This document shows, piece after piece, positions 1 to 61,368 of a DNA stretch of 64,000 bases. Within the stretch, counting starts at the first letter, position 1, and each line of letters starts with the position of its first letter. A program made the position numbers and the translations under genes. Below the pieces are notes generated by a model. It searched no databases and had not been told where the DNA came from. It saw only the letters and a list, made by a program, of their open reading frames with translations. Source of the stretch: Sphagnum compactum (Eukaryota); assembly GCA_965153455.1 (NCBI GenBank), contig OZ234493.1:868001-932000 (forward strand), read 5' to 3'.

Positions 1-2975
1 AATTTCATTCCCAGTTACATGTTTGGTGCCCTATTATGTTGAAATTGGCCGTTCTCGTCCCCTAATTGGGAAACTATACAATAACTCTTATATTCCAATT
101 TGACTTTGGGCCTCTTGAGAGTAGTGAAATTTTAGGATCATTGTTTTTTGGGGTGGGGGGGGGGAGTGTTGTTGTCCCCCCATTGTAAAAGCCTTCAAGA
201 TTTTTCTTAGTGTAATTGGCTGCCACTTACTTCTGGAACTCCCTGCTCTGAAGGTGTTACACTACATGAATTACACTTGATTTTTTGTATAGGAGAATGG
301 CCTTTCTTGAGAACCTTTTGAGAATTTAGGTACTTTTCTTGAAGCAAGTAGGCCAGATGGAAGGTACGGAATATGTCGGAAGGTTTGGAATCTTGTTTCT
401 AATTGGCTGCCTCTACACATGCAAACCAATGAAAATCATTTCTCCAGCTTGCCTAATCTAAACATGAAAATTGTGGATCATCCTGCAAAATATGCTAAAG
501 CCAATAGTTGTAAGTGTGACTTAGACCTATATATTTCATTACATGTGTATTTATTTCATATTTCTTTTTGCATTTTATGACCTATGATTGAGTTTAAGAT
601 CACTCTTCACTACCATATGTTGCATGTGTACTTCTTTCACTTTCCATTTGATGAGAATGTGTATAATGTAACTTGTAGGATTAAACTGTGTTTCATTAGT
701 TTTTGGCTTGAAGTTTCAAGTAAGGAAAAAAGTTAAGAGTTGAGAATTAGTTATTTGTATTATTACCAAAAGAAGAACAATATTCTAACCCTAATCTTTT
801 CAAATTCCTTCACAAACCTCTCGAATATGTTTGAGAATTTGGAGAATTTTGATACTTACCGACATATACTTAGATGATAAACTTTGAAAAAAAAAACACA
901 TGTCCTTATCTTATCAAAAAGGTGAATGATGGTCTTTTACTCTTACTTGGGAATGAGAATTCTGAATAGCCTATATACCCTTTTCCTTACTTGAATTAGA
1001 TCTTTTGAAATCGGTTTCAGCAACAAACTGTCAAATAATTAATTATCTTTTAATTTTTAATGTTGGCACTTGGTTTTAATTTTGAAATTTTCGGCAGACA
1101 ATGGGCATATAAAATAATAAATAGTCGCTTTTCAAGGTTGTGGAAATCTAGGGTGTCGTTAAGATGGTACTTGAAGGTTTGTGATTAAAACCTGATAGTT
1201 GAACTTTTGATTTTATGTAAATTTCAGCACAGATACTAAATAATTTTTCAAAAATTTGAAAAAATGAAAAAGAATTTAATTTATGCCAAATCCATTCAGG
1301 TATTACAGTAACCTTACCTGGCCGATATATTAAAAATCAATATACTCACCCAACATGCGTACATACGATTATACTTGCTCCATAGTAATCAATAGTCCGT
1401 GTCTTGAAACCAATAGCTAGACCAGATGGGTATGAAAGTACCCAATACCAGTACCGGCTTGGAATGGGAAAGTGGAGAAGAGGGGCGGGGAAAACCCATA
1501 CCTTTTCCACCCTAAACAAGGACTAGCTAGTCTATTCAAAAGTCTATACCACACCAAGAAGACCTACTTATATTTCCAATATAAAATTCCATCACATTCT
1601 TAAACTGTTGTTCACCTGAGAAATTGGACCAGAGCCGCCTACTCCTTCCCTCACACAAGAATTCTTGGATTAATATTAAAACAGTTAGGTTAATCCATAG
1701 CTTCTTTCCCTGACCACAGGGATCTAGTCTAGAAACTCTGGCTTCTTCCTTTTTGGTGCTCTTATCTTCAAGAATTGACATAGACAAACCAAGGATTTCC
1801 AGTCTTTTCATATTTATCTTCATATAGTTCCAATTTCTAACTTACGGTACGCAAATTCACCCTCTAAAAAGTATTGTTTTGTTTTGAAACTTAGTAGTGT
1901 GCCATATATATGATGTTATAATTTCGTCAAAATTTGCCTCAAAATAACAAAATTGGTTCAAATTAAATTAGAAAGTAACATTGTCCAAAATATCCTGGAT
2001 TTTTTTACAAGAAAGGGATAATTCACTCCCCAAAAAAACATTGATTATGAGGTATATGGCCAAAAAAACAGTGTTTTATGAGGTATATGGGGGTTGATCA
2101 ATTTGGGGTTTGAAGGGTTCAGGGTTTAAGAGCCAAGTCGTTAGGGTCCAGAGTAAGTGTGTAGTTTGTACCAAATGTACATGCACCTCCATTGTCACCT
2201 CAACCTGACAAACTTCTGCCCACGGATAACACCTGATTCCAGTGTACTGGCTAGTCTTTTAAATAACCCTTTACAAAAATGACGACTACCTATTATGACA
2301 AAATCTGTATGGGGATGCGACAAAGAAAATACTGTTGCTTACATCAAGCATGCTTTCAAGCAATGTCACAGTAAAGTTGCTAGTTCAGAGGTACCACCAG
2401 GATTCAGGGATTGAGCATCTCAGAAGTAATCTAGATGCTTGTTGTCGATGTTCTCGTGAGCATCCGGTATATCTCAGAAGGCACAAAATATCCGGTATAG
2501 GAAATGTGGACACAAGGCTAATTCAGAATGTGGCTTTGGCTACAGAGTGTTCCAGTTGCAGTTTTTGAAAACTATGTGTCAATGGGCTTAGTCAATGAAC
2601 CCCTGACCTCTGATTGTGGTGGCATTTGATGGCAAGGATCAATGACTGGAAAGTCATTTCTACTCCTTGTTCTTTCCTTCCAGTTTTGTTTCTCTGCACA
2701 TTTTCTGCAGTTCCCCTCTCTCTACTAGAAGCTAATTGAGTGCTGCATATGACCTCCAACCAAACCTCCGTAAAAATGGAGAAAAACCAAACTCTATCTT
2801 TGACAGGGAACTAGCAGTTCAGAGGAGGGAAGTGTCAGCATTTTCAGGGCACAAAGTTCTACAACCTCAGTCTATCACCATGCATATATGTAGCATCGTT
2901 TCTTGAGATACATGGTCTAAGCCATCATAAATGGCCAAGTGACACTTAAATAAGTGATTTCTTGTTGTATTCTGG

Positions 2976-3570
<595 letters not shown>

Positions 3571-3643
3571 CTTAGGGTTTGCATGTTTGTAATATTGGGT
3601 TTGGAACCCTAGCAACTGGTCCCCGTTCACTAGGGGGTTAACA

Positions 3644-4073
3644 TGATGGTTCTTGCATTTTGTTTTCCTCCTTCCTTGTTTGCATTTTCTTGTGTTTTGA
3701 TTACTATAACATTGATTGAGTTAATTATTCTTTACGGGCTGTATGGCATTAAAGATTTTGATCATTGTTCATGATCAACATCTTTACGGGCCAATTGGCA
3801 TTAAAGAACTTGCAACTATCTTTGTTCTAAAAATTTGATGGTTCTTGCATTTTGTTTTCCTCCTTCCTTGTTTGCATTTTCTTGTGTTTTGATTACCATA
3901 GCATTGATTGAGTTAATTGTTCTTTACGGGCTTTATGGCATTAAAGATTTTGATCATTGTTCATGATCAACATCTTTACGGGCCAATTGGCATTAAAGAA
4001 CTTGCAACTATCTTTGCTCTAAAAATTTGATGGTTCTTGCATTTTGTTTTCCTCCTTGTTTGCATTTTCTTGT
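3644..4073. repeat. Direct tandem duplication, ~192-bp period, ~2.2 copies
   Basis: tgatggttcttgcattttgttttcctcc recurs at ~3644, ~3836 and ~4028; atctttacgggccaattggcattaaag recurs at ~3780 and ~3972. Confidence 0.9.
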
Positions 4074-5033
4074 GAAGTGTGTGGTTCTTAAATGCATGTG
4101 CAGAAATTGGCATTGTAGTCTGGTCTACTTGAAAATAACCATAATCTTTCAAAGCAGGTGGGACCATTGTGCCCATTTATGTTCCAATCTAATTTGAACT
4201 TCATCTCTCTCATTTACAGGAGATTTACAGGCATATGGAGGAATATATGGTCTCTTAGGGCTATTCACTGAGGTGGCTATACAAACAGGGTGTCAATGAT
4301 TTTACTGAAACTAATTACTGTGTTGTGCAGGCCTCTCTCCATGCTGCAAATAACAAGAGGGAGCTGCTATCTTCAATAGAACAAGACTGTGAAATACAAT
4401 TGAATCCAATGGCACCATACAGAAGACTGCCACTGTCCCAATCTTGGCTGGCATTTACTTTGGCCCAAGTCACAGCTTCCAATATATAGAGCTTCAGCAG
4501 GAGTTGATGAGGGCCTTGGATCAGATTGTAGTTCAATGGTTGTTGCAGCTACCATGGCAGCAACTGCGGTCCCCACAGGCTGTCAACTAGGCCTTCCAGA
4601 TTTTGGAAGTTCCTTTCTTAAAGAAAATATGAAACAAAAAATCAGGCATTTCTTTACATGTGGTCTAGCTTTAGATGCTTCGAGATTTCCAGCCCCTCCT
4701 CTAAGCCTACCGGCCTCATGACACGAGCCTCCAATCTGGAAGGGCCTAAAGCCAGACCCTTCTCCTAGTTTTGAGCATACATTTGCTTTTGTGTGGTTTT
4801 GATTGTTTCTTTTACTTTTTGACAATGGTAGTGACTTCAGCAATAACCCATATTCCCAACAGCTTTATCCAGCTTGGCTTAACTAGACAATGAAGCTGGA
4901 AACAATGTGAGTAGAACTGCCTTTGCTTCTTGAAAGCACTTGAACCAATGTTGATTGGTTAAATCCTCCAGCTCTTTCATCACATTGTATGTGTTGCTGC
5001 TGCTGCTGTTGATGGCAATGTTTTTTATGTGTA

Positions 5034-6681: not shown

Positions 6682-7092
6682 GGGTTTCGCATTGAGTGCA
6701 TTGAACACATGGTTTGTGCCTTTTCTCTTCCATCCACGCATGTTAGACATAGACTCACAATTTTCTCTGATGCAATGTTGATGGATACCCATTCTTATAC
6801 AAACAAGTCTCGGTGAGTAGTACCATTGTGAAAAATTGACTACCAAATGTGCCATTCTTGGGAAATTTCTGTTGCAACTCAGGACCCAGTGTTCCTCACA
6901 ATGTTTTCCTGTGAACTGATATTATGCAGGGAGAATGTGATGGCATTTGGGTATGGAAGCGCGTCAATCAGCTATTTAACTGGCTGCCTCTTGCTGCTGT
7001 CGTAGAGAGAAAAATCAGTTGCATGCATGGTGGTATTGGAAGGTCCATCAACTATGTACAGCAGATTGAAGATCTGAAACGGCCCATTACTG
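6682..7092 (+). pseudogene. Fragment of a BSU1/BSL kelch Ser/Thr phosphatase catalytic domain
   Basis: GFRIECIEHM|gt, then ag|GECDGIWVWKRVNQLFNWLPLAAVVERKISCMHGGIGRSINYVQQIEDLKRPIT. This carries the PPP-family CMHGG motif in a BSL-like context. Confidence 0.85.
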
Positions 7093-10000
7093 TTGGCTGA
7101 ACTTCTTGGCTGTTTTTAAGTTGAGGAGGGTGGTATGGTGTGTACTGATAGGTAGGGGCCTTGCCCTCTGCCCTTGATGTTTTCTCCAGCCGAGAGAAAA
7201 CAAACCCAGAGAAGCAGAAGGCAGAGCCATTGCATCTAGTCAGAATATCTTACAAATTACAACATGTGCATTATACTATTTTAGCCTATTTTGGCTAACT
7301 AATGGTAATTTAAAAAATTGTGAATTTACAACTTGAACATTGTTTACTGTCCAACCATGTTTTTTCTTTTGACAAAGCGCCAATGCATATGCCAACTCCA
7401 ATTTACTTGCCAAGTATTGATTTGAACATTGAAGTGATTTTTTAACTATATTTTTTTGAACTAGACAAATCTGCACATTGGAGATCATACCTCCAATGCA
7501 CAACATCTACCTTGGACACTACCCCATGCACAACAAATGTTAGCATTATGTTTGAACATCATGAAATCATTGTTAGCCCTAAACTCACACATTTCATATA
7601 CTGATGAACTACAAACTGCTACAAACTGCATGAACTTTACCTAGACCAATTAGATGTGCAGACTGAAAAATCAGAAGTATCAGCCTAATGTGCAAAATAT
7701 GCTCCTTGTTAGGTTCCTATTCACACCCTTGTAAAGAAATAAAATTGGTTGCAACTATCTAAAAGGTACCCCAGAGTAAATGAGGGTTTGTACTATACAT
7801 GGGAATTGGCAGTTACTAAATGCTTGTGTGTGGGCTCAACATGTTCAAGTTCAAACTGCAAAGGTTGTTAGGCTTTCCCTAAAAACCAACTTTTCTAGAC
7901 TTGGAAGAGTAGAAGCATTGGGGAGGCTTGTGGCATAACATAACAATTAACATTTCTAAGGCAAGACCAACATAAGGCTAGTTGTTTGAGTAAGGTACAG
8001 ATGGAGCATGACGAAAATGCAATCATCAGTGATGTTGATGGTACAGTGGCTCACGATGAAGGACCAGTGGATGCTGATCCCGAAGAAACAACGCCAAACC
8101 CCTACATTTTAGCACGTAACATGCGCGTTGCTCAACTCAAACAACGACTTGCAGAAGTTGAAGGAAGCGCCCAAAAATTGTGAGTTCTTCTTAGACTTGT
8201 CTTCAGGTGCATAAATGGAGAGGCCCATATAAAATTAGTAATGGATCGTGCAATCTCCATTGCCTACACTGTATGAAAGAGTTTGGAAGTCCGACTATGT
8301 GCGTGAGATTTGTGTATACGCCTACCAAATAGTTTGAACACGCTTCAATAATCTTTGTTCTAGTGTTAGGTTGTAGCTACTCTCCGAATTCCAATCTATT
8401 CTAAAATTTTCATGGGGTTAGGGTTTAGGGACTGAAATCGATGTGTTCGGTGCTACCATGAAATAGGGTTTCTGGTGATCTTTTACTACATGCATAGCTT
8501 AAAATTAGGTTTGTATGCTAGTTAGTGGTCATGTGCTTATTGAGACAGTCTTAATCCAAACTAATTACTCCTTTGCTGTATTTTGGAAACACTCGGTCAC
8601 TTGGCAGTCGTCACTTCATGAACTCAGCAACCATGCAAGGGAGGAAGAAGACAAGTAAGAAGTCCACCCAAAAGGTGGTGGATGGGAGAACGCTTGGACA
8701 CCAAAGCAAGAGGAGGAGCACTAGGAATGTTGGAAAACCACATCGTCATGTGGTGGAAGAGGAAGGGTCGTCGACATCAGCAGCATCTAGTGAATGCGAC
8801 ACTTCATGTAGCAGCGACTACAACTCAAATGTAGAGGAGTCAGAAGGTTCTGAGCTACCAGTTGCATCTTCAATTATGAAGGAACAGAATAAGGCACCTA
8901 GCAAACGGACCCCCACACCAAATGTAATGTACCCCTCCCCCCCCCCCCCCCATCAAATATTGTTTTTGAGGTCCATTTTTATGTCAAAGATACTAGAAGT
9001 AACAACATTATTGAAGGCACAATATCTGTGAAATTTGTGACTGGTCCTATGAGCCTTGCTAGTCCGTATTGAGTTGAAGTTTATTCTAGCAAATGAAACT
9101 GAAGCAGAATAAAAACATGTAGGCAAGATCTACAACAAAACAGACAAACAAATTCTGGTAAAATGTTAACAAACATTAAAATGACTCCCCCCCACAGGCT
9201 TTGTGACTCAGCCTAACTCTGTGCCCCGAGCTCCCTCCCTCTGTGTCTGTTGTGTGTTTTCTTCTGCAATCTGGTACTATGTGATTTTGTGTCTTTTGTT
9301 GCAATTTTGGTGTCTGATTTTGGTAGCCTAGTATGTGATTTTTTGTTTCCTGGTGTGCAATTTTGTGTTTTCCTATAGTCTGGTGTGTGTGATTTTGTGT
9401 TGTTTGATGCAATCTCATGTGTGTCTAATTGTTTTTTCCAACAATCCAATCATCCAAATGTCATGTTTTTGCTGCAGTAGTGTATTGTTTCCTTACAAAT
9501 TCCTTAAAGATTTTCAGAGATCTTTTTTTTGTTTTATTTTTTACAGATGGATTGTTTTGCTAGTGATTTGAGGGGAAGGATCATGGAATTAATGAAGAGG
9601 GTGAGATGGGTGGCAATACCTCACTCTCTTTGTTTTTTTTGGGTCACCTAATTTACACATGGTCTCATCATATTTTGTGGGGTCTTTGGTAGCTCTTTTG
9701 CAGTGTCTGTCGTACATAGCATATATAGGTCATGAAAGGGTGAAAAGATATGATCATCAATCAGTTCAAGTCAGTTAGTCATATATGTAGTCGGCAGGCA
9801 AAACTTCGGTGTCATTCTTCTTCTGTCATGTTATGTATATGCTTTTTAGCCACACAGTGGAACATTGTCCCAAAGCTTATTTGATGACGACGATCTAGGA
9901 GCATGACGGACTAAACTTCCAACTCAGTTAAAATTCTCCAGAGTTGCACATGGATGGTCAAAGAGATAAGGTTCATCTTGGCTCTAAAAACTTACGTTAT

Positions 10001-11229
10001 TCGGTCAAAGAAAGAGCTCAACTCAAGCTCCACATAAGGTTATCAAAAAAGCTGCTAACAAGTTCAACTCAAACTCCACATAGCATTATCAAAGAGCTAA
10101 AAAACTCAAATCTGGATCACAAGCTTTGGGTGCTTGTGGGTTTTGATTTGCAGGGTTTATTTTGTTTTGGGTGCTTGGTGGGTTTTGATTTGCAGTTTTG
10201 TTTGATTTTGGGTGCTTGTTGTTATTCGTGTGCTGTGTTGTCTTTTTGTCATTATGATTGGCACTGGACAACAAACAATATGGTAATCTGTACAAAAATG
10301 TACAGTCAACTTCAGCTTGAATTTACTCAATTATCAGTCAGTGTATAAAGGTGAAAAGGAAGGAAGGAAGGAAGGAAGGAATAATAATGTAAATATTGTT
10401 AAGGGGTTTTCTTTTGGGGACAAGAGTGGTGATGATGGATGTCATCTTAAATCAAAGGGCATCAACATATCCAGGCCATGATGATGAAAGGTAGACAGAT
10501 TTGATTGATAGATTGACTGTTTGTTTGTTTGATTGATTGATTAATTCATGGATGTATGACTACTTTGTAAGACCATTTCTAGTACTTTCTAAGTACACCC
10601 ATCATGTTTTATTATGAAAAATGACTGTTGTATTTCCTGGGTTGAACATTGAGCTCCTTTGCATCGTTCCTTATCATATGTGGACTTGGTGCACACCTGT
10701 TTTGCATTCACCATCATATTTGATATAACACAAACAGAGACAAACAAAACTTTCTTCTCTTCTTTCTCTTCTGACATCATATCTGAACTGAATGTTGCAT
10801 TTTATCCCCTTCCAAGATTCCTCAAGAAGCAGTGACATTGCATCTGATTACTGTAGATGCATTATTGTGAAGATTGTAAAGAGATGTGATGCTATGTGGG
10901 CTTTTGTGCCTGAAGAATGTGAAGAAGTATAATTACCAAACTAGAATTGTCTCCCTAATGAGTTTGCAAATCAGTTTTTTCTTTAGGGATTGCGTGCTTG
11001 TCTTACTAGTCCAAATGCCCTGTTTGTTACAGGAGAACTGATATGTGCTTACTGGCCCTTAAACTGCACATTAGAGATGGCCACTTGTAGAATATCTAGT
11101 ATTGTTTTCTGGGTTTACATGTTACAGCACATAAGCTCCATAAATTTGGAAATGGAAACATAAAATGGGGCCCAGTTAAAAAGGTAATTGCCAATACTCA
11201 TTTTTCAGTCTTCAACATTAAGTCTCTCA

Positions 11230-12150
11230 ACTATGATAGAAGGCTTAGGCAAGAACACCTTAATTCTTCAACTAGCCTCTGTCCATTTTCAGATAAGGGG
11301 GTAATTTATGTTATTTACAGTGTCAATAATAGTAGAATGCTATATGTTGGTTCCACATGTAAGTCTACCTTTGAGAGATTCCAAGAGCATATAAGAGAAG
11401 CTAAAAGATTGTCTAAATTTGCTAGTTCGTCATTTGATTTTAAGCCACTATATGCTGCCATTGCTAAAGAGGGTTCCATTCCTTCAGAGTTTTTCATATT
11501 GAAAAAGTAGATGGGAATTTCTTTGATTCTGGAGGTCGTTTTGCTCTGAACTTGTTTAAGGTTGTTGCCTCTCAATTGGAAAGAAAATGGATGAGTATTT
11601 TACACACTTTCTTTCCAAAGGGTTACAACCTAGAAGGCAAGTCAAACAATAGACGTTCTCCTAGGGTACATAAAGCTTCTGCAATGTTGTGGAGAAAGGG
11701 CAGCAAGCCTTCATTTGCTCGTCCTTTTAACAATGTTTGGGTTCCTCTCAATGTTCTTCCTAATGTTGCTGTAAGTTTACCTCCTCCTTCTTCGCCAGTT
11801 TCTGAGGAGACTGGTTCTCCTTCTGATGATGTGAAACCAAATCATAGTGGGATCCCTCACCTTTCTCCTCACAGATTTTTTGGCTACAGAGATTACAATA
11901 GAAGGCTGGTTTTTCCTTTCTTCTCTTATGTCTCAAGGTAAGTTTTCTATTATTTTTCTCTCCAAGTATAAGACCAAGAACTTGGTTCGTATGCTTCTGT
12001 TACTGTCTGAGTTTTCTCCTTCTGTTCTCGGTCTTGATGTTGGCCATGTATTAAGTGAGTGGAAGGCCAAAGTTCTTTTGTTTGTACAGAAGAGGACTCG
12101 TGATTCCTTAGTGGTTCAAACCTCTTCTGATTCTTCTTTGTACAGAGGTT
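11230..12150 (+). pseudogene. GIY-YIG endonuclease module, copy 1 (frameshifted)
   Basis: KGVIYVIYSVNNSRMLYVGSTCKSTFERFQEHIREA..KPLYAAIAKEG [frameshift ~11475] HSFRVFHIEKV..QLERKWMSILHTFFPKGYNL. The conserved Tyr, Tyr, Arg, His, Glu and Asn positions are all present. It is followed by a low-complexity linker and RFFGYRDYNRRL. Confidence 0.82.
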
Positions 12151-12607
12151 GAGGTTGCTGGTATTAAACATGGTGTAGAAAGGGATGGAGAACTCACAAG
12201 CCAATGATGGATCCAGTAGGTGTGCATTGGACCACTTCCGTATTCCAGACACATGGGTCTGTGGTGTTGTAGGGGTCTTGGTAGTTCACTTTTTCTTGAT
12301 TTCCTTTATCAAGATTGGAGGTTTTTGCTTGAGCTGGTAAACATTTCTTTAAATTCAGAGCTTGCAAAGTCTATCACTATTCTTGGAAATTATTGCCTTT
12401 ATCCAGAGTGTCTTCAAGCTTTCAGTTAAGATCTAGAATTGTGCCCTTTTTGTTCATCAGAGTTTTTCTTTTGTATCAGGTTTTCTTTCATGTCCAGAAA
12501 TAATCTTATAAATCTCCATGATTTCAGTAATGCAAATATGAAGTGGTTTTCTTTCCGGAATTTGCTGATCATGCTGTGTTCTGTAAAGGGTTAATTAAAG
12601 TCTCTCA

Positions 12608-13330
12608 ACAGGCTTAGAAGGTTAAGGCAAAAGCACCTCAAACTTGTTGCCAAAATTTGTTCTGTTTCATATGGAGGTGTCATCTATGTAATCCGTAACA
12701 CTGGTTCTAGTTAAGTGCTATATGATGGTCAAACCTATAGCTCAGTTTTTGCAAGATCCTAAGAGCATGTAAGAGAAGCCCGAATATTGGAAAAGCTCAC
12801 CAATTCTGTTATTGATTTAAAACTCTTCGTATGTGCCTAAGTTAAAGAAGCTTTTTGTTCTTTTAGTATCTTTGCTAATGAAAAAATTATGGGAGATTTA
12901 TGGATTCAAATGGGAAAATTGAACGTCAAAGGTTCAATCTTGCTGCCACAACAGTAGGAAGAAATGGATGGCTGTCCTTCATTCTGTACTTTCCAAATCG
13001 TATGACTTAGAAAGAAGGTTGTGTAGCCAAGTTTGTAACAGTCCTATGTTATGTTTTAATGGGTACCTAAGAAGGTCCTAAACTTTCTGTTGTGCATCCC
13101 AAAAGGTTCGGAAGTCCAAAGTCAATCCCTTGCTGTTGGTTGTGCTCCATTATCTCTTCGTGTGCCCTTCTTCTGTAGAAAGATCCTATCTGTCATGATT
13201 CATCACTGGATTACCTTAGTGATCCGTATGTTCTTTCCATAGAACTTTTGGCTGGATACAAAAGAAAATTGGATTTCCTCTATAAAGTTATACCTCATGG
13301 GAAGGTGTTTTCTGAATTTCTTACCAAAAA
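12608..13330 (+). pseudogene. GIY-YIG endonuclease module, copy 2 (heavily decayed)
   Basis: RLRRLRQKHL..GGVIYVIRNTGSS*VLYDGQTYSSVFARS*EHVREA..RKWMAVLHS..SYDL, then HRTFG..KRKLDFL..GK. It is colinear with copy 1 at a ~1.38-kb offset. Confidence 0.72.
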
Positions 13331-16300
13331 CTTTGTTGGTTGTCTTCAATGTCATCAGTCTTTATGTGCATGCCTTTGATATATAGCCCTATTTGTGTGA
13401 TTAGGGTTGTTCATGATTGAAAAGTTTGCCATAGGAATCTCTGTTTTTTTTGGATTTACATGTCTCATGTTGACAATATATGACCAGACTGTATTTTTTG
13501 CTAGCTTCTACCCATTCCCTATGTATAACATGTTGTGTGTGTGCTTGAGAAAAGAAATTAACATGAAAGAAAGCTCAGGTTGAAACCGAACCAGAAATCA
13601 ATATGGTGAATGCCACTGGGCTACAAAAGAACACATCGGCAACAGTACAAAGTGGCAAGCATGGTGGTGACTTTGCAAGGTGCAATAATCAGGCATGTAA
13701 ACATGGTGTTGGAAGTTCAGAATGCACATGGAATGCTGGACAATGTGGGCAGACAAGACAGTGGAGTTGTTGCCAAGTGTCACAATGTCCTAATTGGAAG
13801 GTAAGATTGAGCCCTGGGCACAAGGGACTTACAAATTGTTGTGCCACTTGTGGAAGGGCTAGAAGCAACATGTGTGAATCAACATGGGGTGAAGGAGGGG
13901 GTGTATGTGATCAGGGGCTATGTCAAAGGGTGCAACCACATTCACCCATGGGCGGGCAAGCACCAGACATGGCCTTGGACAATGAAATAGAAGTAGATGC
14001 CCAGCTCAAGGTTTTCGCTGAAAGTCGTATGCAACAACGGGCTTCAAAGCAAGCTATAGAATTTGAAGCCCAAGAACGAAAGGAGAAAGGCTTGCCAGGC
14101 CATAAGGTGCAAGTGACAAGGCATGGCCAAATTGATGGTGCATGTGAAGGGAAGGATGCATGGGATGGTGCAATTAGGTCTCTAGCACCTCGGACTTTGA
14201 ACATGGCAGTGGTTAAGGTTACAGAACAGGACCCTATAGACATGGCTAGACTCCGCTTGCACTTGGATGGGAAATTTGAATATGTAGGTGGTGAATTAAG
14301 TGCTGCTGGCTTTAGGAATTGTGTAAGGCGATATATGAAAGGAGAAAGAGCACGCTTAAAAAGAAGGTATGCACAGAAAGGTGCGAAAGCCTGCCCACTT
14401 GGAGTGGACCGAGAACAATGGGACAAATTAGTGATATATTGGCAACAATGTGACACCAAGACTAAAAGTGAACACATGGTTGATGCAAGAGGGGCAATTG
14501 CAAAAGTAAGCCACCTTGGGCGTGGTGGTAAGGCAGCTATAGAAGCAAAATTGGCAAGTTAACCCTAAAACCCTAGTCCTTTGTGATGGCCAAATGGAAA
14601 TTACAATATGTTGAAGTTATTATGCACTCACATGTCACATACAATGCTGAACACTAAATGATATCTGAAATGGGTGAATGCAGAAATCTGAGCAACACCG
14701 AAGCCCATCAATATCTGAGATGGCTGTTGTGGGACTAGATTCTAGTGGCACACGTGGGTACCCAGTGAGTTTTCCTAGCTGTTTCATTTGTCTTTCCCTG
14801 TCCTTTCCCTTTCTGTCTTTCTTTGTTTCTTTATCTGGTCTTTGTTGTGGTGTCTGTTGCTAGCCAGTAGTATGGCTGATATTAGGTGTTTTTTCCTTCT
14901 GTGTGCAAACTCTAAGATGACTGAAAACTATAATATTATGAAATAGACATGGTCTTGGAAATGATATCATCAGGTACTGTGTCTACTGTGGCATAATGAC
15001 CCTGTGGATTCAAGCTCCATAAGTTGTTGTTTCATGCAATTGCTTCACACTTGAGCTTCCAATGGTGGATGAAGTATCATCTACTGCCTCATTGACAATT
15101 TTAAGTATTTCAACAGTGGTTTCCTTAGCAGTATCTCTTGAATCAAAATCATCGGCTCCAGTATTCCAGATCCTTCATTCTGTGTTGTCCAGATCTGTCA
15201 TTCTGTATTTCCTAATATCTCTTAATTCTCCTGTTGGTGCATATGTGGTCTCCAATCTTGCCCAATCTGATATTCTGAATTTTGTTTTTCTTTTGTTTCT
15301 TGTCTTCCCTTGTTTGGTTCTTTCTGTGGCTTCTTGAGGAAGTGTTAGCCTTGTTGTTTCTTCTTCATTGTGAGAACGGAGATTTCTCTATTCTCATGAA
15401 AGATATTCATTTTTTTTTCTGCCTTCATGAGTTTGATAGTAATTAGTAAGTGGAATACTTATGTTGGATTTATAAAAATCTTTTGATGGGTTTATTGGGC
15501 AGGCATCGGGATCTCCCAATTGGTTTTCTCGAATTACTGCCATTGAAAAGAAGCTGCCAGAGATGAGTGGCCAAGTTTCCCAAGTTCTTGAAGGGATGGA
15601 TAAATTAAATGCTAAGGTAGAAGATTTCATGCAACAATTGCTAGCATGTCGAGAAGATGGTGTGAATGTGAGAATCCCAAAAACTATTGCAGCCACTGTG
15701 AACATTGAAGAGGTAGATGTTCCTGCAAGGACTAAATCCCTTGAGATTCTTGTTGTTGCAAAAAGCCTGCATGAGGTTCTTCATTCAGATCTTGATGGAC
15801 GAGGGTCAGGCACAACAGTGGTTGACAGTGCCACACAATTGGCTCCAAAAGCCCATCGTATGTCTACAGGAACAGGGGTGGGCCAACAAGGGGATGGTGT
15901 TGTCCCTTCACATGTCCCCAACACTGTGCTAGTAGGAGAGGATATCCCCAACTATGTGCTAATAGGAGAGGATATGGGGCAGAATCCTAATATGTTAAGG
16001 AAGGACATTCAAGTTGGAGTAGCTTGCAAAGGCGGTGACTGTGTAGATGAGAGCAACCCTAAACGCCCACCCTCGAAGGTACGATCTAAGTGCCCAACAT
16101 GACCAACACATTAAAGTTAGAGTATACACAATGCTATGGATTGTTCAATTGTGGGAATACTCTTGCAGTGTATATCAAATGTGGCATATGTGTGGGATGT
16201 TGGGAATTCCACCAACTACATGGCTAAAATAGGACATAAGTTAGATTGTGGAAGCTAGATCTGTTGTTCTTTCTGTTACAATCTAAAGATTAAGAACATA

Positions 16301-17351
16301 CCCACATTGTTTGGGGTCTAGGTGCATACAAGCTTCAAGGGAAATCATTGACATGGTTTCACATTTGTATTCATTGATGGATTTGGTGTGGCAGAAAGTG
16401 CAAAAAAAGGCCGCAATTATGCCAGCACCTGAAAGAGGTGTGAGCAGTCGGCTACGCTCTAATATTGGTGCAAAGGTGGGGCAAGCAGGAGAGAAGGCAA
16501 GGCAACAGGTAAGTTAATACCAACATGCTCTTGAGTTTCTATGATTCATAACTAGGGAACACAAATGCCCTGTTTGACACAATGTTGTAACAAAAATTCC
16601 ATTTTCCTAAATTGGTTGCTCATGGTAAATTGAATGAAGGTTCTTTATTGGTTGATGTGCAGTTTAAAGTAGGGGAAGCAATTGCCTTATGTAACATTGA
16701 TGAGGAGGTTGTAGTAAAGGGGCTGATAACAAGTGTTGGAGGATAAGGATGTGTCCACCATGGGGTGCCAGTCAAAGAGTCATGGTTCCGAGTCCAATTA
16801 AGTGAAATTGTGGCAGGTAAAAGCAACACCCCGTTGTTGGTGCCAAATGAGAATGATGATCCCCCACAATGTGTGTTAAAGGATGTAATAGGTTCAAACA
16901 CTGTATGGGAAGGTCGTCTAATGCAAAAGCATGCTTAAGTTAGGGGCACTATAGGTCGGGAGCTAGTTGATTTTTGAATTCTAAAACCCTAATGAGTAGT
17001 TATGGCCTTTTTTGGATGTCAATGATATTTTAGACATTGTCAGGTTTAATAGACCTGATAGAGTGATGGATTCCTGGTTGCTGTAATTGGAACAATGGCC
17101 ATTAAACACCATTAGATGGAATTTTAATGTTATGACAAAGGGTAATTTGTTGGTTAAGTAATTGCAGATTTTTGACATGCAAAATTGCAAATCACAAATC
17201 TATGTGTGTAATATTTATTGGTTGATTTTTCAGCACTAGAGGAATATAATAAAGACCTGATATGTATAATGTACATTAGTTAAAGTAGGTGTAGGTGTGC
17301 TACTAATGCTAATGTGGCAATGGTTAATGCAACTAATCCTGATACATCATG

Positions 17352-18294
17352 ACCCTAAACCCTAACCCTTACCCTAAACCCTAACCCTAAAACATGTTTA
17401 ACATGTATCATGGAAAACCCTAACCCTAACCTTAAAACATGGGCTAGTAGTTGCATTTGCAACTAAATCTAACAGTTGTTGTGCTGCCATGTGGCACACT
17501 ATAAACGGTCTGATGAAAAACCCTAACCCTAACCCTAACCCTAAAACATGGGCCAGCAAATGCATTTGCAACTAAATCTAACAATTGTTGTGCTGCCATG
17601 TGGTGCACTATAAACGGTCTAATGAAAAACCCTGACCCTAATCGTAACCCTAAAACATGGGCAAGCAGTTGCATTTGCAACTAAATCTAACAGTTGTTGT
17701 GCTGCCATGTGGCGCACTATTAACGGTACGATGAAAACCCTAACCCTAACCCTAAGACATGGGCCAGCAGTTGCATTTGCAACTAAATCTAACAATTGTT
17801 GTGCTGCCATGTGGCGCACTATAAACAGTCTGATGAAAAACCCTAACCCTAACCGTAACCCTAAAACATGGGCCAGTAGTTGCATTTGCAACTAAATCTA
17901 ACAGTTGTTGTGCTGCCATGTGGCGCACTATAAACGATACGATGAAAAGCCCTAACCCTAACCCTAAAACATGGGCCAGCAGTTGCATTTGCAACTAAAT
18001 CTAACAGTTGTTATGCTGCCATGTGGCGCACTATAAACGGTACGATGAAAAGCCCTAACCCTAACCCTAACCCTAAAACATGGGCCAGCAGTTGCATTTG
18101 CAACTAAGTCTAACAGTTGTTGTGCTGCCATGTGGCGCACTATCAACGGTACGATGAAAAGCCCTAACCCTAACCCTAACCCTAAAACATGGGCCAGCAG
18201 TTGCATTTGCAACTAAATCTAATAGTTGTTGTGCTGCCATGTGGCGCACTATAAAAGGTACGATGAAAAACCCTAACCCTAACCCTAACCCTAA
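17352..18294. repeat. Subterminal tandem array: 8 units of 102-109 bp, each ending in 3-4 CCCTAA-type hexamers
   Basis: Unit starts (aaaacatggg) at 17434, 17543, 17652, 17754, 17863, 17966, 18075 and 18184. Each unit carries the hairpin AGTTGCA-TT-TGCAACT (one unit degenerate). Length differences come mainly from the hexamer count. Confidence 0.95.
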
Positions 18295-18680
18295 TCTTCC
18301 CCACGTGCACAATGACATAGCATGGTTGATCTAAGACATGTCCGCATCCCAACGGCTATGACTTGGACGGTCTAGATTAATTAAAGTATTATTAAAACTA
18401 AATATTTAATTACAAAATAAAAATACACGTGTTCGCATACAATTGGGCTAGCTAGTTCAATGGGAACGCAACCCCTGTAGTTGCATGCAGTCGCACTTAC
18501 AACTGTTAGTATAGAATATGGGTGGATGAGACCGTATAACCCAATCGTATATACTTGTCATATACGTACTGTCCCATTATATGGTTGGTCGCATGCAACT
18601 TGTCTTATGCAACTAGGCGAATTTGCAGTTGCATGTGTCGCATGCAACTGAAAACCAGTTGCATACGACAGTTGCAAAAT

Positions 18681-18698
18681 GGCAAATTTCTAGTAGTG
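18681..18698 (-). repeat. CACTA terminal inverted repeat (right end)
   Basis: Reverse complement is CACTACTAGAAATTTGCC; the following AAT is a candidate 3-bp TSD. Confidence 0.8.
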
Positions 18699-20099
18699 AA
18701 TGCTACAACACACATAGATTATGATTGGGAACAAAAGTTGACCATGCACATTCATGAATAGAATAAGAAGACCATGAACCCCAAAAAAAAAAAAAAAAAA
18801 ACAAAGGGGCGAAAAGTTCACCTAGAAAGAAAACTAATGGTTATTGAACCTACTAACAACTAGTACTTTAAATCTTTAATGCACATGCTATTTTTTAATA
18901 ATTTTTTTAATATTAAAAATTTACGCAAACCCTATATTAATTACAAATTTATTTTCAAAATATACATAAACATATTTTTGAACTAATTAACTTATAATTT
19001 TTACATGACAACCAATATATTGCACCTTATATTTTTACTCATGTATTTTTTATTTTTTTCGAGTAGTGTCACCCCACCTCCCCACCCCCTCCCACCTTTC
19101 ACGTACTAGATGGTGAAACAATACATAAACTTCTTTAGCTTTGAATAGGGACTTCAAGTGGGTTATTAGTATGGAATCCAATTTTTTCTAATTCTTTTTA
19201 GGTGGAATTTTTTCAAAAAATTTGGATGGATATAATAGGTAAGCTTGTGATGATGGATGAAATAATCAACTAGGTATAATCCTTCCTGTAATAAATTGAG
19301 GTAAGACTACACTCAATTTTAACTCCCCCTCCTTTGTTTCCTAGGTTGGGCATTAGATTTATAATTTATGATTTTATTCGCACTATTACTTTCAAATGCC
19401 AAACCAAACCTTTTGAGATGTGATGGCCAATTTAGGGCACAATTTTTTTGATAAGATCTTTGGAGATAATTATGGGTTCCAAAATATTGGCTAACATTAG
19501 ATACATCAGTTCAATATCCTCTTAGGAACTTGGGAACCTCCAAGAGCAAGCCCTTGCATCCATATGTAATTAAAAGTTGTTTCTCAAAGTTAACTCTCTT
19601 GAACTTTCAAGTTCAAAAGAATTAACAAACACATTGGTTTTATTTTGTGTCTTTCTTGTCTTTTATTTTGTTTTTGCAATTTTTGTTTATGAAATTGTGG
19701 TCTTGTCTTGTTTTATAAATCCTTTGGATATTGTAAAGATTCAAGATGTGGAAAAGGAAACCAAGGAGGCCATGTGTGTGTGTGGGGGGGGGGGGGGGGG
19801 GGGGGATGCTGGTGCCCAGCATTGCAAAGGCACAAATTGCCAAACTCACACAATTGTCAATGCAAAATTGATGAAGGAGAACAAGAAAGTTCTTGAAGAA
19901 TCCTAAAAGAATTGTGAAGGTGTAGACTTGTTGTTAATAGGATATAAAATCAATCAATCTTTATTCTAATGTCATGTTCATGTATACACCCTAGACCTTG
20001 TTTTTTTGTGGTTGGGTTTGGCATTGAATTTCTTAGTCCTAGGAAATACTTTCGTGGTAAATGTCACAAGGGCTAGGCACCATGTCAACATTGCCTATT

Positions 20100-36183: not shown

Positions 36184-39100
36184 TCACACAAGATATGAGG
36201 ACATGGGATGTGAGTTGACATGCCCTCTGCATTCTTGGTAGTTAAATCGCATTTCATAACATTTGTCACAAAGATCAAAACCTCCACAGATAGAGCAACT
36301 CCATCGTCGAATTAAGATCTCCTCATAACAATAGTCACAATAATAACTTAAGGATGATGCTATGACACTTGGTACCTAGTGTCCCATTTTTCAACCCCAC
36401 AAAACCCACCAATGTCAAGTCAAGGTATCTCATTTAGCCTTAGTAATTTTTTTATAAATTAATTAAGCATGGTACTCCCAAATGTAGGATGTTAAGATCC
36501 CATTTCGGTAGGCACTTTGGCCTAGATGAAATATCCAAATGGAGGTATTGGTCTTTAAACTTCCAACAAGTTTTATCAAATGTTAATAAAAATATTTATT
36601 GGGTACTATTGATAATGAAAATCATCACCAATTAGTGGATTGAAGCAAAATGTGGTTTAGTTCAGAATAGATTTAACATTTTGCATGGTTTTTCCAAACT
36701 TCAAATTGAACTAGAGATGAAGTTTGTTTAGGCATCCAATTAATATTCATGAGAAGTCATTAGAAGGTAGAGATCTGAATTTTTTTTTAAATAGGGTATA
36801 CGTACCACATGAAGATGATCATTATAGTTAGGGTTATTTTCTAAATTGAGTTTCAAAAACTCTTCTTGTAAGTTTTTTGACTTGTTTTTATCCAACACAT
36901 TGGAGTTGACAACAATAGTTTGATGACCATCTTTTCCATGCACCATTATGGTTGCCCCCTTTTCAATCACAATGCTTGCCCATCATGCATCACCAAATCG
37001 TGCATACACATGAATTTCATCCCCAAATTGCAATGATTCCACAAATTGATGATGTTTTCGCAAGGTGCAAAGATAAATTTGGTCTATGGGGTCATTGTGC
37101 CTTAAAACAAACAAGGGACACATATAGACCTTCTCTCCATCCCTCCAAATTTGAGCCTCCATGTGACAAAATATTTTTGCATATGAACCCCAAGATGAAA
37201 GGTGAGGAGATCGTTGCTCCAACTCATGGGCACAAAAGCAAAAGACAATTGTGGCACAATCTTCTTCACTTAAAACCATTACACTTAAACACAACTTGTT
37301 TTGCAATTGTTGTTTAAAGACATTTTGTTTTATACAATTTGGAAAAGGGTGTGGAAGCACATTGTCGTAATAGCTAACCACTTGTAACGTCGGTTCTTTC
37401 TATCACAACAAAACAAACATTTAGAGGTTTTACTTGAGTTTTAGTGTATAATATCTATTTTGATTTAAATATCTTTACATACATAGAGCTAAATATAAAT
37501 GGAAAAACATTGAACTAGTGGCAACATACATTTACATGCCAATTTCACATATGATCCTAACACATCATGAATATTTATGACGTTTAATGATAATGGAACA
37601 TATGTGATGACACTACCTTCCACCAATTGTTATCATAGGTCATGGAGATTTGACTTCCACTCAAACCGCACATTTGTAATGCCTTATCATGATTCAAGCC
37701 AAAGGCATTAGATAACATCTTGCAACCTGAAACGTTTATTTCCACCAATGTTTTCACAAAATCCAAGCCTTGCAAATGTGTCAATTTTTCGCAATTGTTT
37801 AGCATCAAGTACTTCAATGTTGTTAAAGTATCCAAAGATGGAATATTGGTGAGTTTTTGACAATTCCCCATGTTAAGGGTTTCCAAATTTGATGGCAATG
37901 CCTCAACAACCACCAAGTTTGGACATGTTCTCATGTCCAATTCAACCAAGGCACTTAAATCTTTGAAACTTTTAGGAATGGTGCTCATGAAGTTCTTTAT
38001 CAAAAACAATGATTTTAACTTTGTAAGATCTCCAAAATTTGAAGGCAACCCGATTTTTTTTCCAATTGAACATCCAAAAAAAGATAGATAATGAAGGGCC
38101 TTAAGTTGTCCAAAGCTTTCAGGGAGCATTTCAAGGTTATAATTGTTAGATAGTTGAAGGTCCTCAAGTTGTTCAAGGCATCCAAAGCTTTTAGGTAATT
38201 CTTTCAAATGTTTACAATCAAACAAGGATAATGTTTTTAGGCTCTGGAGTTGACCAAAATCCTTCGGAAGTTTTTTGACTTTAGTCCTTATCATATATAA
38301 TGTCCTCAACTTCACAAGTCCAGAAATAGATGGTGGCAAGTCGTGCAAGTCCATACAATCATACAAATATAACTCCTCCAAATTGAACAATTTTGAAAAA
38401 GAATCTGGCAAGTGAGAGAAAAGTGTTCCTCTGACCAACAAATATACCAAACTTTGAAGGTTCCCAAATGTCATTGGTAGTCCTTTTAAATTCTTGCAAT
38501 AGTATAGCCAAACTTTTTTGAGCTTAGATAGGTTGCCAATGCTATCTGGTAATGTTTCCAAGCTAACACAAAAGCTCAAATCCAACTCTTGGAGTGCTTG
38601 GAGTTGGCCAATAGAATAAGGGAATTTCTTTAATGTTGAACACCCATATAAATCCAAACATTTGAGTTTGGACAATTCCCCAATGTTCTGAGGTAGCCTT
38701 TCAAATGCAATGGAATCTCTCAATAACAATTGTTCCAATAGTTTGCAAGGGGGGTGCATTTTAAACCAAAAACACATTAGTGAAATCACAATGATTTTAA
38801 AATTATTAGACCTACCTAAGTAGTAAGGCCTATATGCACATTTCATGACCATTAATTGCATAGACTTTAAAATAAACCAAAGTTAATCAAATAGTTCAAA
38901 TTAATGAAACTTATTAATTTTTTGCCTTCATGAATGTAGGCCATGAATTCATTAAATTAACTAACATGTGATCACATCAAAATTTCCAATTTTACATCTT
39001 GCCTATAATTTGCACATATGTATATATTGTTTTAAGAAACTTGAAAAAGTCTACAAATATTTCAAAAGATGTATCTTTTGATGGTTTCGTACTTGGATGC

Positions 39101-39659: not shown

Positions 39660-41820
39660 TGTACCATATGTTGAGCTCTTGTAGTTTCCCAAAAAATGCT
39701 TTTCCTTCTTAATAAATTTTTAAATTTACTTTCCTAATGTTTAGCGGTGTGCGAATCGGGGTTGGCTTTCAACCAAAGCCTCAGCTCACGCTTCACTATA
39801 CGGCAATTAGCGTCAATCCAGGGTTTATGGCAATGTGTCTCTCTGCAATTTCCTCCCGAAGGCTTGCTGCCAAAAGTAGACTCTGCTGCAGCACCCACGC
39901 ACTGCCGCAATAGGTCAGCTAACATGTCTGCCCCCAAATGCCCAATTGAGTCAGCAACCCACAGGTTTCTAGGACTCGCTGTTAGGGCAAGCTGATACTC
40001 TTTAGTTTTTGATTTATCATATTTGAACCTAGGTAAGAATTTTTGTGTTACAACTGTATGTTGTGGCTCAACAAAGCTACAATCGATGTTCAACCGTAGG
40101 TGTAACAACCTGTGGTCAAAATCTCCCCCATCACGCAGTAGCGGGTGTCATTTGTTATCACTTCGAAGTGTGTAGTAACTTGCCAAATTACAAGTGAGCC
40201 AACAATATAATCAATAGTGCTATGCCCCCCATTTGCCAAGCAAGTGAACTCCCCCGATTTGTCACCAGGTGTCAAACCATTGAAGATGAGCAACCTAGCG
40301 TCACAACATAAGTCCAGGAGTTCACGGCCCCAGCCGCCAACACTGGTGTCACGGTTCTGTCGCTTAGCCACAATGCTTGGTTGTTGAGTTTCAGCAAGTT
40401 CAGGCGCCTGTAACAGTTCACAAAGGTCGCTAGTGTCAATGGTATCTGGTAACGTTGTAGTACGCGCATTAAAATCCCCTCCCAATAATATTATGCCCCC
40501 TAGAGTTTGAACTTCAGTAATATTTGCTGCCAGGTCTTGGAACAGGGATTTGTTCTCGTGTTTGGAGCCAACAGGGGCAGCATACGCCACGCAAACAAAC
40601 AAGTCAGGGGTAGCACCCTTGCTGACCCATAGCCATAGATAAGAATTATGGCTTCCTTCGTTCCACTGTGACAGGTTTGGGCTGAGGTGGCTACAAAAGT
40701 AAGCAACAACCCCCTCACTATGTTTTATCGTTTTTGTTCTTCCCAGCTGCACAATGCGCGCTACCACAAGTGAGTCAAACCCTTCATCGTGTGGCAAATG
40801 TTGGCCTAAGAAGTGCTAGGTTTCGGTTAATAAGACAAGGTCAACATCCTGAAATAGTTCTAGTATTTGCACCCCCGTTTCCAGTTTATTTACACCACCC
40901 TCGTGCATGTTCCATAATAGCATACATAGGTCTTTTTGGTCCTCGTGCCCCTAGATAGAAGAGGGCAGGCAAATCCAATTGCCGTTGATGAAGAGCTCGG
41001 CTGCACGCCAAAAGGCGCGCTTGCCTGTCGCCTTGGCCTCTTTGAATAACGGTCACAATTTTGACTTGAGCGCCTACTGCGCGGGCATGAGGTTCTCGTC
41101 TAGGCCTAGCTTGGTCCCCGCCAAACCTTTGCGCCCTCACAGCGCGGCCTGGTGATCTTCGCTCGTTGCGAATTTGAACAGCACCGCACCGAAGCGCGCT
41201 CCCGCCGCCAAGGTGGAGGCTCACACGGTCGCAGCCGTTGCCGTGTGGCAGCGACGACCTTGGTGCGCAGCCTCATTTGCCTTTGCAATAGCTCTGTGTT
41301 GAGCCGCTGCACCAACTCTTTCTCGATCTTGCCCTCCTTAACCTCGAAACCCATGAGGCGCAGGTTGAGCTTGCACTCCTCCTGTTTGGGCGCGTCGGCC
41401 AAGGTCTCCACAGCCCGACTGACCACCTAGCGCACGTTTTTGGCCATCACTGTGGTCCACTTGGGCTCCTCCACAGAAGCAGCTTTAGATGTGACAGCCG
41501 CGGCCGCCTCGCGCTCCATCAGCTGGTTAACTGAAAAGCTGCCAGCGACCGCGAGAGACGCAATGTTCTCGATGGCCGCCTCCATCTTGGACAGTCGCGT
41601 GACAACAAGTGAGCTGTCGGTCTTGAGGCCCATGACTAGCCAATGCCCGGCCAGGGCTACCTGGTAGACCGCCAAGGGTGCATTGTTTAGAACGTTGAGC
41701 CCGGCGTTATTGTAGTGCGTCTTGGCAATGTTCTTCTTCAACGTGAAAATGTTCGACGCTACAATGAAAGGGCACAACAGCGGTGCGACATCAAGTGCCA
41801 TCGCGGAATTCTTCAAATCT
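39660..41820 (-). mobile_element. LINE (RTEX/CR1-like) with ORF1 and the APE endonuclease part of ORF2; 3'-truncated before RT
   Basis: GC-rich ORF1 at ~41800-40950 (KLNLRLMGFE.., with a stop and a frameshift). ORF2 APE motifs: LWNMH.., DLVLLTET, VAYAAP, LGGDFNART, GRELLDLC, EFTC..GHSTIDYIV, then HKPWIDANC. Coding similarity stops near 39660. Confidence 0.85.
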
Positions 41821-56064: not shown

Positions 56065-56066
56065 CG

Positions 56067-56078
56067 TGGTATCAGAGC
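56067..56078 (+). promoter_or_regulatory. Primer-binding site complementary to the 3' end of tRNA-iMet
   Basis: TGGTATCAGAGC, 2 nt after the 5' LTR. Confidence 0.95.
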
Positions 56079-56107
56079 TCAAGGTGAAGCTCAATGACAT
56101 TTTTGGG

Positions 56108-61356: not shown

Positions 61357-61368
61357 AGTGGGGGAGAG
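61357..61368 (+). promoter_or_regulatory. Polypurine tract
   Basis: AGTGGGGGAGAG immediately before the 3' LTR. Confidence 0.9.

Follow-up and report, generated by a model that had tools for sequence, protein, structure and literature searches.

We analysed a 64,000-nucleotide stretch of the Sphagnum compactum genome (GenBank assembly GCA_965153455.1, contig OZ234493.1, positions 868,001 to 932,000 of the forward strand), here called the window and numbered from its first letter. Two diverged GIY-YIG endonuclease modules lie in tandem on its plus strand, inside an intron of a gene that resembles TnpA of CACTA transposons (Table 1). A preliminary description made from the letters alone had read them either as 5' pieces of a Penelope-like element (PLE) with an N-terminal endonuclease or as virus-derived or free-standing endonuclease cargo of a CACTA family. 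By comparing the window with sequencing reads, metagenome contigs, protein families and structural models, we conclude with high confidence that the two modules are defunct pieces of a Chlamys-type PLE, a retrotransposon whose protein joins an N-terminal endonuclease to a telomerase-related reverse transcriptase (RT).

Two endonuclease modules in a spliced intron

Module 1 (11131-12141, plus strand) is a GIY-YIG endonuclease in which every core residue is present, with its core at ~11298-11629. It is now spread over three frames. The first, 11100-11507 (GVIYVIY..LYVGST..ERFQEH..PLYAAIAKEG), is the one among six window pieces scanned that matches Pfam PF01541 (GIY-YIG), with 25.2 bits (E 2.1e-5) against a gathering cut-off of 22.6 bits. 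The second, 11468-11938, carries the rest of the endonuclease (IEKV...LERKWMSILHTFFPKGYN), and the third, 11835-12149, holds the ..GKFSIIFLSKYK.. block. Read directly, the core residues are VIY..YVG, the R and H of ERFQEH, the E of LERKW, and GYN; the profile match and this reading together bear out the frameshifted but complete domain of the preliminary description. The two frameshifts fall at ~11473/4, as seen in reads and by tblastn, and at ~11910. In contigs of other copies from two DNA runs, a further T stands behind 11473 and one base is missing at 11910, so that both frameshifts are private lesions of the window copy.

Compared with full-length copies of the element, module 1 is 5'-truncated by ~750 bp, and reads of other copies carry PLE sequence on upstream past 11131. 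Its longer part (part a in Table 1) is 83-90% identical to the family protein P0007 by tblastn and 92% and 93% identical by blastn to two metagenome copies of the element, L001 and L007. About 540 bp have been deleted at the 12048/12049 junction, and the CxC motif of the family has been lost with them; behind this deletion the window copy continues for 36 codons and then breaks off at 12141. The loose ends at 12048, 12049 and 12141 are places where intact copies read on: 20 and 32 RNA reads run from the deletion junctions of the window into intact PLE sequence, from which it follows that some family members are transcribed, possibly CACTA-embedded ones. Sense-strand reads of polyadenylated (polyA) RNA cover 11732-12353 at a depth of 5-12, and depth is zero over 12354-12975, within module 2. 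The sequence just 5' of module 1, at 10699-11131, recurs with its halves swapped beside the 3' end of an unrelated PLE copy (locus L038, 3850-4426), and may be another repeat that associates with the PLE family.

Module 2 repeats module 1 at a spacing of 1378 bp and is, as had been proposed, the more decayed homologue. It is 42% identical to residues 1-144 of P0007 (tblastn E 7e-28 in the whole window, 9e-30 in the excised region), colinear with module 1 at 447 identical bases out of 813 aligned (55%), and 68-76% identical to L001 and L007 by blastn. At least four in-frame stops, and frameshifts as well, interrupt it, and its motifs have changed, YVG to YDG and GYN to SYD. No similarity to the element was found in the spacer 12142-12292 (local alignment score 19, shuffle mean 22). 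Both modules begin within the leader of the element and lack their 3' parts. The starts of module 2 (12293) and of L001 (~502-513) fall independently at a near-identical element position, ~711-722, which could mark a truncation hotspot, or the second 5' end of a subfamily without the first 600 bp.

Two smaller pieces lie downstream. The remnant at 15221-15411 (81-95% identity by tblastn) matches the element by blastn at 94% over 15221-15283 and at 92% over 15287-15406/11, the latter part (element 4221-4340) ending at the 3' terminus of the element. Joining 12141 to 15221 as a single PLE copy split by a 3-kb insertion was considered and rejected, because the two sides lie ~130 bp apart in the element and because a sister copy of the CACTA (L003) is entirely without 14536-16173; the downstream pieces at 14787-15411 are therefore a separate remnant. 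Mapping family proteins and element copies back to the 64-kb window revealed no RT of the family, in agreement with the preliminary description.

The intron itself is documented by RNA. In one polyA run, six reads with four start points join 8923 to 13560, and since the five letters between these points match 13555-13559 at three of five positions, a GT..AG intron at 8924-13554 is implied. The donor had been predicted exactly, whereas the predicted acceptor (intron end at 13578) lay ~24 nucleotides too far downstream. Neighbouring introns are seen at 8180-8578/8609 (joint 8179 to 8579/8610) and at 13799-13912 (joint 13798 to 13913, GT..AG, 20 reads). By these joints, the gene that encloses the modules in one of its introns is spliced and lies on the plus strand. 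The window copies are inert debris that rides in the intron and is spliced out.

That this gene belongs to a CACTA transposon is plausible and in part established. A 331-aa exon scores 15.7 bits (E 0.017) against Pfam Transposase_24, below the cut-off of 28.7 bits; Atlas matches to Transposase_24 clusters, which serve as a lead only, score 0.81-0.84; and the further putative TnpA exons have no Pfam match. The 3' end of the host element is CACTA-like, with its terminal sequence and a subterminal array, 17352-18294, of a 109-bp unit in 8.2 copies with 89% matches, each unit comprising telomere-like (AACCCT)3-4 and then AAAACATGGGCC. At 8402-8430 there is a short match in inverted orientation (GGGTTAGGGTTTAGGG), and no matching CACTA 5' terminus was found in the window. 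Two further observations concern the intron. A run of ~20 C stands at 8926-8955, right after the donor site 8923/8924, with the PLE pieces 2 kb away; (C)n is a reported target of Chlamys elements in the available text of PMC8557442. The part at 9555-10487 has a depth of 0-5 in DNA run X3 (organism B) versus ~40 in run X1 (organism A) and is absent from the sister copies L004 and L005; CACTA copies, or species, differ here by an indel.

Table 1. Features at the locus, in window positions; element positions are L007 coordinates minus 3200.
Feature	Position	Strand	Content and basis
Intron of CACTA TnpA-like gene	8924-13554	+	RNA joint; contains both modules
Module 1, part a	11131-12048	+	element ~860-1776: leader end, GIY-YIG endonuclease, linker block RFFGYRDY..GKF; younger PLE copy
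Module 1, part b	12049-12141	+	element ~2319-2411, ILSEWKAKV...SSDSSL; blastn 95-97% identity
Module 2	12293-13330	+	element ~722-1700; older decayed PLE copy, endonuclease remnant ~12676-13006
Module 2, piece	12293-12378	+	element 722-805; 75%; local alignment score 72, shuffle maximum 49
Module 2, piece	12595-12818	+	element 946-1169; 69%
Module 2, piece	12920-13328	+	element ~1279-1697; local alignment score 94, shuffle maximum 51
TnpA-like exons	13555-13798, 13913-~14562	+	RNA depth and joints
Stray PLE fragment	14787-14879	+	element ~3917-4010; blastn 93% identity
PLE remnant	15221-15411	+	element ~2543-2605 fused to ~4221-4340; 5'-truncated, internally deleted
CACTA 3' end	17352-18698	-	109-bp subterminal array 17416-18294, TGCAACT clusters, terminal CACTACTAG at 18681-18698 (minus strand)

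The protein family and the intact element

The 157-aa middle piece of module 1 finds 20 protein clusters of 286-575 aa at 72-88% identity, all unnamed or 'hypothetical'. A second search returned 23 clusters, and in both searches together identities range from 46 to 100%, mostly 72-92%. The longer of these proteins run on past the point at which the window copy ends, through GCAC..HHGHVIS and then GTKF, MDKCCNNFVFVCKK and KFHKNPIKPRFI, and the second search extends them to SFDFSTLYTKI, GIPMGTNCA and RRFVDD, which are RT motifs A, B and C. The CxC motif, as GCAC followed by HHGHVIS, occurs in the proteins P0028 and P0002 and in L001, and the GxKF and DK motifs occur in family proteins as RGTKFRSG and YMDKCCNNF.

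An exhaustive HMMER search with P0028 gave 3822 relatives at E<=1e-3 (893 at <=1e-10 and 95 at <=1e-30), many of them 700-1190 aa long with the match starting 300-490 residues in. From the 150 relatives listed, the 24 longest were scanned with Pfam. GIY-YIG occurs in 11 of them, which are distant relatives of ~1000 aa, always within residues 27-214 and above the cut-off in six; RVT_1 occurs weakly in four, every one below the cut-off. Within the family proper, P0028, P0021, P0011, P0013 and P0007 have neither a GIY-YIG nor an RVT match in Pfam, P0007 missing although the window copy passes, and a length-directed protein search found no family protein longer than 1008 aa. A 25-row alignment, A1, shows the common architecture: GIY-YIG with R, H, E and N, an RxxGxRDxxRR block and a near-invariant CxC (C342 and C344), continuing through GHVxT, GxKFR, DKxxNNFxxxCKK, KxHKxPxxxRFI, DFxTLYT, GIPMGTNCA and RYIDD, with G381, D470 and K471 also near-invariant; 23 rows reach through the RT motifs. 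The RxFGYRDYxRRL...GKF block downstream of the endonuclease in module 1 is kept across this wider family (A1 consensus RxxxxRDxxRR), so that the conserved RxFG..YxRxL block noticed earlier is real and forms part of the linker between endonuclease and RT. The A1 profile matches the I-TevI catalytic domain (1ln0/1mk0; E 5e-6, residues 5-91 of 97), and ERFQEH, LERKW and GYN of module 1 line up with conserved A1 columns and with I-TevI.

For the fold of the RT we turned to P0041, a protein of 938 aa that is the closest full-length relative (36% identical to P0028 over 535 residues). Its AlphaFold model, built from a 79-row alignment, has a predicted local distance difference test (pLDDT) of 87.9 and a predicted template modelling score (pTM) of 0.74, and telomerase RTs take all of the first 16 places among its Foldseek matches in the PDB (E 8e-10 to 1e-6), followed by DRT2, group II intron RTs and R2. 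PLE RTs are the sister group of the telomerase RT, and telomerase RTs at the top of the list are therefore what a PLE RT would be expected to give.

Copies elsewhere show the anatomy of the element. Scanning metagenome contigs gave 225 stretches encoding relatives, from which 80 loci were kept. Among 24 listed sequencing runs, 20 contain part of the analysed sequence; in 14 no less than half of its words occur, and six of these 14 bear the label 'moss metagenome'. The near-intact copy L001 aligns at 746-3664 to residues 2-935 of P0041 in a single frame, with two internal stops in ~985 codons, in the order N-terminal GIY-YIG endonuclease, CxC, GTKF, DKC and RT. This frame is open for ~60 codons upstream of the GIY-YIG core without an ATG (L001 599-760; window 11100-11300), and P0041 starts with M where the family has KSLNRLRRL. 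An upstream exon within the ~840-bp leader may supply the start codon, as the available text of the Chlamys paper suggests for other PLEs (PMC8557442).

A full-length element measures ~4.23 kb (L007 3313-7540, compared with L025, L026 and L075). Its 3' end is sharp (...TTCTTATGAAAGATAT) and is followed by 26 different flanks among 30 listed ends, at which no poly(A) was seen. In L031 and L068 a 3'-end fragment lies 73-290 bp upstream of a near-full copy, the partial-tandem layout known as a pseudo-long terminal repeat (pLTR); L007 has no such fragment. Locus coverage is 5-7 over the first ~800 bp of the element versus 35-41 over the last ~500 bp. Read depth behaves in the same way: in DNA runs X1 and X3 the bin of the 3'-terminal fragment 15221-15411 reaches 1182-1751 versus ~105-318 over the 5' region, a 4- to 11-fold difference, and in the RNA-contig run X15 the 3'-terminal bin reaches 1871 versus 22-103. 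These rises towards the 3' end fit frequent 5' truncation. Rfam gave no hammerhead at E<=1 in window 7000-19500, nor in L007, L031 or L068.

Origin and history of the modules

Three metagenome contigs, L003, L004 and L005, share the CACTA flanks of the window at 82-97% identity (8606-9567, 10667-10878, 12416-14535 and 16174-16375). Between these flanks they carry PLE positions 1260-3485 uninterrupted (~2.2 kb, 95% identical to L007), including the CxC region and the greater part of the RT, and module 2 follows directly. The cassette is thus present in other copies of this CACTA, with its RT retained. As the same insertion and module 2 recur there, the younger PLE and module 2 predate the divergence of the CACTA copies. 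By contrast, the downstream PLE scraps lie in a 1.6-kb stretch, 14536-16173, that L003 lacks and that is a separate, later insertion. The alignments indicate that each CACTA copy later underwent different deletions.

A history consistent with these data would begin with an old PLE copy, module 2, that inserted in the intron of the CACTA TnpA-like gene and then decayed. A younger copy, module 1, would have landed ~150 bp upstream of it in the same orientation, after which the CACTA would have yielded at least one further copy carrying both modules. Independent deletions would then have taken the CxC region and almost all of the RT from module 1 of the window, and the front end from module 1 of the sister copy, which kept its RT. 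As for the element itself, family features suggest that an intact copy of ~4.2 kb would encode one protein of ~985 residues, whose N-terminal GIY-YIG domain would nick the chromosomal target and whose telomerase-related RT, joined via the CxC linker, would copy the element RNA into the nick by target-primed reverse transcription.

Three other origins have to be weighed against this one. The endonuclease profile matches the catalytic domain of I-TevI and the window holds no RT, as would suit free-standing viral homing endonuclease genes, PBCV-like or Tlr8p-like, carried as cargo and unrelated to any RT. Yet the homologues are linked to RT, with family copies reading from endonuclease into RT in one frame; among the long relatives the 11 GIY-YIG domains are N-terminal and the four weak RVT_1 matches accompany them in the same set, 23 of the 25 A1 rows run through the RT motifs, and the RxxGxRDxxRR block belongs to the conserved linker between the two domains. 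We regard this origin as highly improbable, and the 'carried by a CACTA family' of the preliminary description stands in a passive sense alone: L003-L005 carry the same PLE insertion, and the viral or free-standing cargo falls away. GIY-YIG reading frames are also common in organellar group I introns, from which they could have moved to the nucleus with mitochondrial or plastid DNA. Against this speak an Rfam scan of 7000-19500 that gave no match at E<=1, whether to tRNA, rRNA or a group I intron, flanks that are CACTA sequence shared with L003-L005, and relatives that are fusions of endonuclease and RT; with no sign of an organellar source, this origin is scarcely conceivable.

CACTA elements capture host gene fragments, and the PLE pieces might have been acquired as DNA, by transduplication or gap-repair capture, with no retrotransposition at this site. 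The window would fit such a course in that it contains only fragments, with internal deletion junctions at 12048/12049 and 15283/15287 and with the pieces at 14787-15411 out of order; both modules lack their 3' ends, and the cassette occurs in at least two CACTA copies. One X3 DNA contig has a joint from 11050 to 13332 that would remove both modules as a block, although at a depth of 5.25 and a side of 22 it is too weak to use. However, the sister copy has 2.2 kb of colinear PLE, 95% identical to a free copy, between the same flanks, so that the state of the window is explained by later deletions of an ordinary insertion. Furthermore, the remnant at 15221-15411 ends exactly at the 3' terminus of the element, as retrotransposed copies do, and same-orientation tandem insertion is a known habit of PLEs according to the available text of PMC8557442. 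Capture is, in our judgement, unlikely, and insertion by retrotransposition, followed by deletion, remains the reading we adopt.

Several observations weigh against that reading, or against its assignment to a Chlamys-type PLE. Target-primed reverse transcription does not produce copies without 3' parts, as both modules are; later deletion is inferred here, and the sister copy supports it. A frame that is open throughout occurs in none of the 80 loci, where the longest ORF (open reading frame) of the family reaches 803 aa (L002), and neither L001 nor the window has an ATG ahead of the endonuclease. A preference for microsatellite targets is not seen, with none of the 26 distinct 3' flanks beginning with one. 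Pfam RVT_1 does not match the RT fragments P0028 and P0021, a single-sequence PDB search with P0028 gave nothing meaningful (best E 0.98), and a PDB profile search matched the endonuclease domain and no RT; the RT identity of the family rests on motifs and on the predicted fold of a 36%-identical relative. The labels 'Chlamys' and 'Naiad' in our tree were assigned by motif regular expressions and not by named reference elements. Lastly, 544 of 580 RNA reads are 95-99% alike to the window, a likeness at which they derive from paralogues and not provably from this locus.

Elsewhere in the window, a Ty3/Gypsy long terminal repeat (LTR) retrotransposon occupies 55956-62188 with open frames of 1052 aa (gag, protease, RT and RNase H) and 371 aa (integrase); the chimeric tail of protein P0027 matches both of its probable LTRs, which lie near 55956-56063 and near 62081-62188. 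A 432-aa leucine-rich-repeat ORF lies at 37584-38882 on the minus strand (LRR_14, E 2e-33), next to a weak endonuclease/exonuclease/phosphatase remnant at 40090-40815 (minus strand) that is probably derived from a long interspersed nuclear element. At 3644-4074 there is a 192-bp tandem repeat in 2.3 copies with 96% matches.

Place among Penelope-like elements

The available text of Craig, Yushenova, Rodriguez and Arkhipova (2021, PMC8557442) describes a clade of PLEs with N-terminal GIY-YIG, CxC, GxKF/Y, DK(G/A), an insertion in the fingers domain (IFD), pLTRs and no canonical hammerhead, reported from algae, spike moss (PLE-X, which lacks the endonuclease), Physarum and animals. Chlamys is its name there for the endonuclease-bearing members from green algae, streptophyte algae and Physarum, set apart by the absence of CCHH and of a CX2-5CxxC linker, a variable residue after DK and a longer IFD (PMC8557442). 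Judged by its sequence features, the moss family matches the Chlamys type. A single ORF carries N-terminal GIY-YIG with R, H, E and N, CxC, GxKF and DK followed by a variable residue, here C as the third residue of the motif (DKC). There is one Cys in the endonuclease and none upstream, and hence neither CCHH nor a CxxC linker motif. The insertion between RT motifs A and B is long, the spacing from A to B being 92 aa in P0028 and P0021 versus 63-77 in Naiad-type rows by rough regular expressions; the IFD was judged from this spacing. A quick IQ-TREE of 76 rows agrees: a split with an approximate likelihood ratio test (SH-aLRT) value of 99 separates 48 rows, with the moss family and no Naiad-type row, from 28 rows that hold all six Naiad-type rows, and the family is sister to P0041 (SH-aLRT 81).

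Such an element seems to be undescribed in mosses. In the parts available to us, the curated Chlamys table in the supplement of PMC8557442 lists no moss, liverwort or hornwort, with Selaginella PLE-X alone appearing, and the paper mentions for mosses only a few BlastP matches to the PLE-X type without endonuclease. The accessible text of a 2022 review (PMC9033089) gives the PLEs of land plants as conifer Dryads and endonuclease-less PLEs only. We found no bryophyte PLE of the N-terminal-endonuclease type in full-text literature, a search that leaves subscription journals and the supplements of recent genome papers uncovered, where RepeatMasker-level 'PLE' entries may be held. Whether this is the first endonuclease-bearing Chlamys-type lineage to be documented in a bryophyte, and hence in an embryophyte, dispersed, multi-copy and sense-transcribed, is a claim that we hold to be evenly poised. 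If it is true, land plants kept a lineage that streptophyte algae already had and that may still be mobile, or may have been so recently, and CACTA transposons may serve as vehicles that multiply embedded PLE copies. A dispersed moss family of this type would close the gap in the record from streptophyte algae to vascular plants and would argue for vertical persistence of an ancient telomerase-related clade into embryophytes. In practical terms, elements of the family escape Pfam RVT_1 and are called 'hypothetical protein' in gene sets, so that the gene counts of mosses come out too high, and standard transposable-element annotation probably overlooks these elements.

Of the features that the moss family shares with Chlamys beyond its protein, the length of ~4.2 kb falls inside the 3.3-8.2 kb given in the available text of PMC8557442, and 5' truncation, partial tandems that form pLTRs and the lack of a canonical hammerhead ribozyme are common to both. 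It differs in its moss host, in showing no preference for (CA)n or (C)n targets, a microsatellite bias that the same text reports for many, and not all, families (PMC8557442), and in having no visible accessory domains (PHD, SAP or Josephin). Naiad elements, the endonuclease-bearing N-terminal PLEs of animals, are alike in domain order, CxC linker, GxKF and the absence of hammerhead ribozymes. However, they have a CCHH motif inside GIY-YIG and an upstream CX2-5CxxC linker, both of which the moss family lacks, their A-to-B spacing is shorter, and they stand on the opposite side of the tree. Canonical endonuclease-bearing PLEs (Penelope/Poseidon, Neptune and Nematis) were ruled out, since the endonuclease is N-terminal here, with no CCHH, and no hammerhead was found.

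I-TevI-type homing endonucleases (1ln0 and 1mk0) have the same catalytic domain, which is fused here to an RT and not to a DNA-binding tail, in a retroelement and not in an intron. Among land plants, a PLE-type RT is also found in PLE-X of Selaginella, which lacks an endonuclease, has hammerhead ribozymes and targets 28S ribosomal DNA, and in the Dryads of conifers, whose endonuclease is C-terminal and which were acquired horizontally, from arthropods according to the accessible text of PMC9033089. Unlike either, the family described here has an N-terminal endonuclease and is dispersed, as its 26 different 3' flanks attest.

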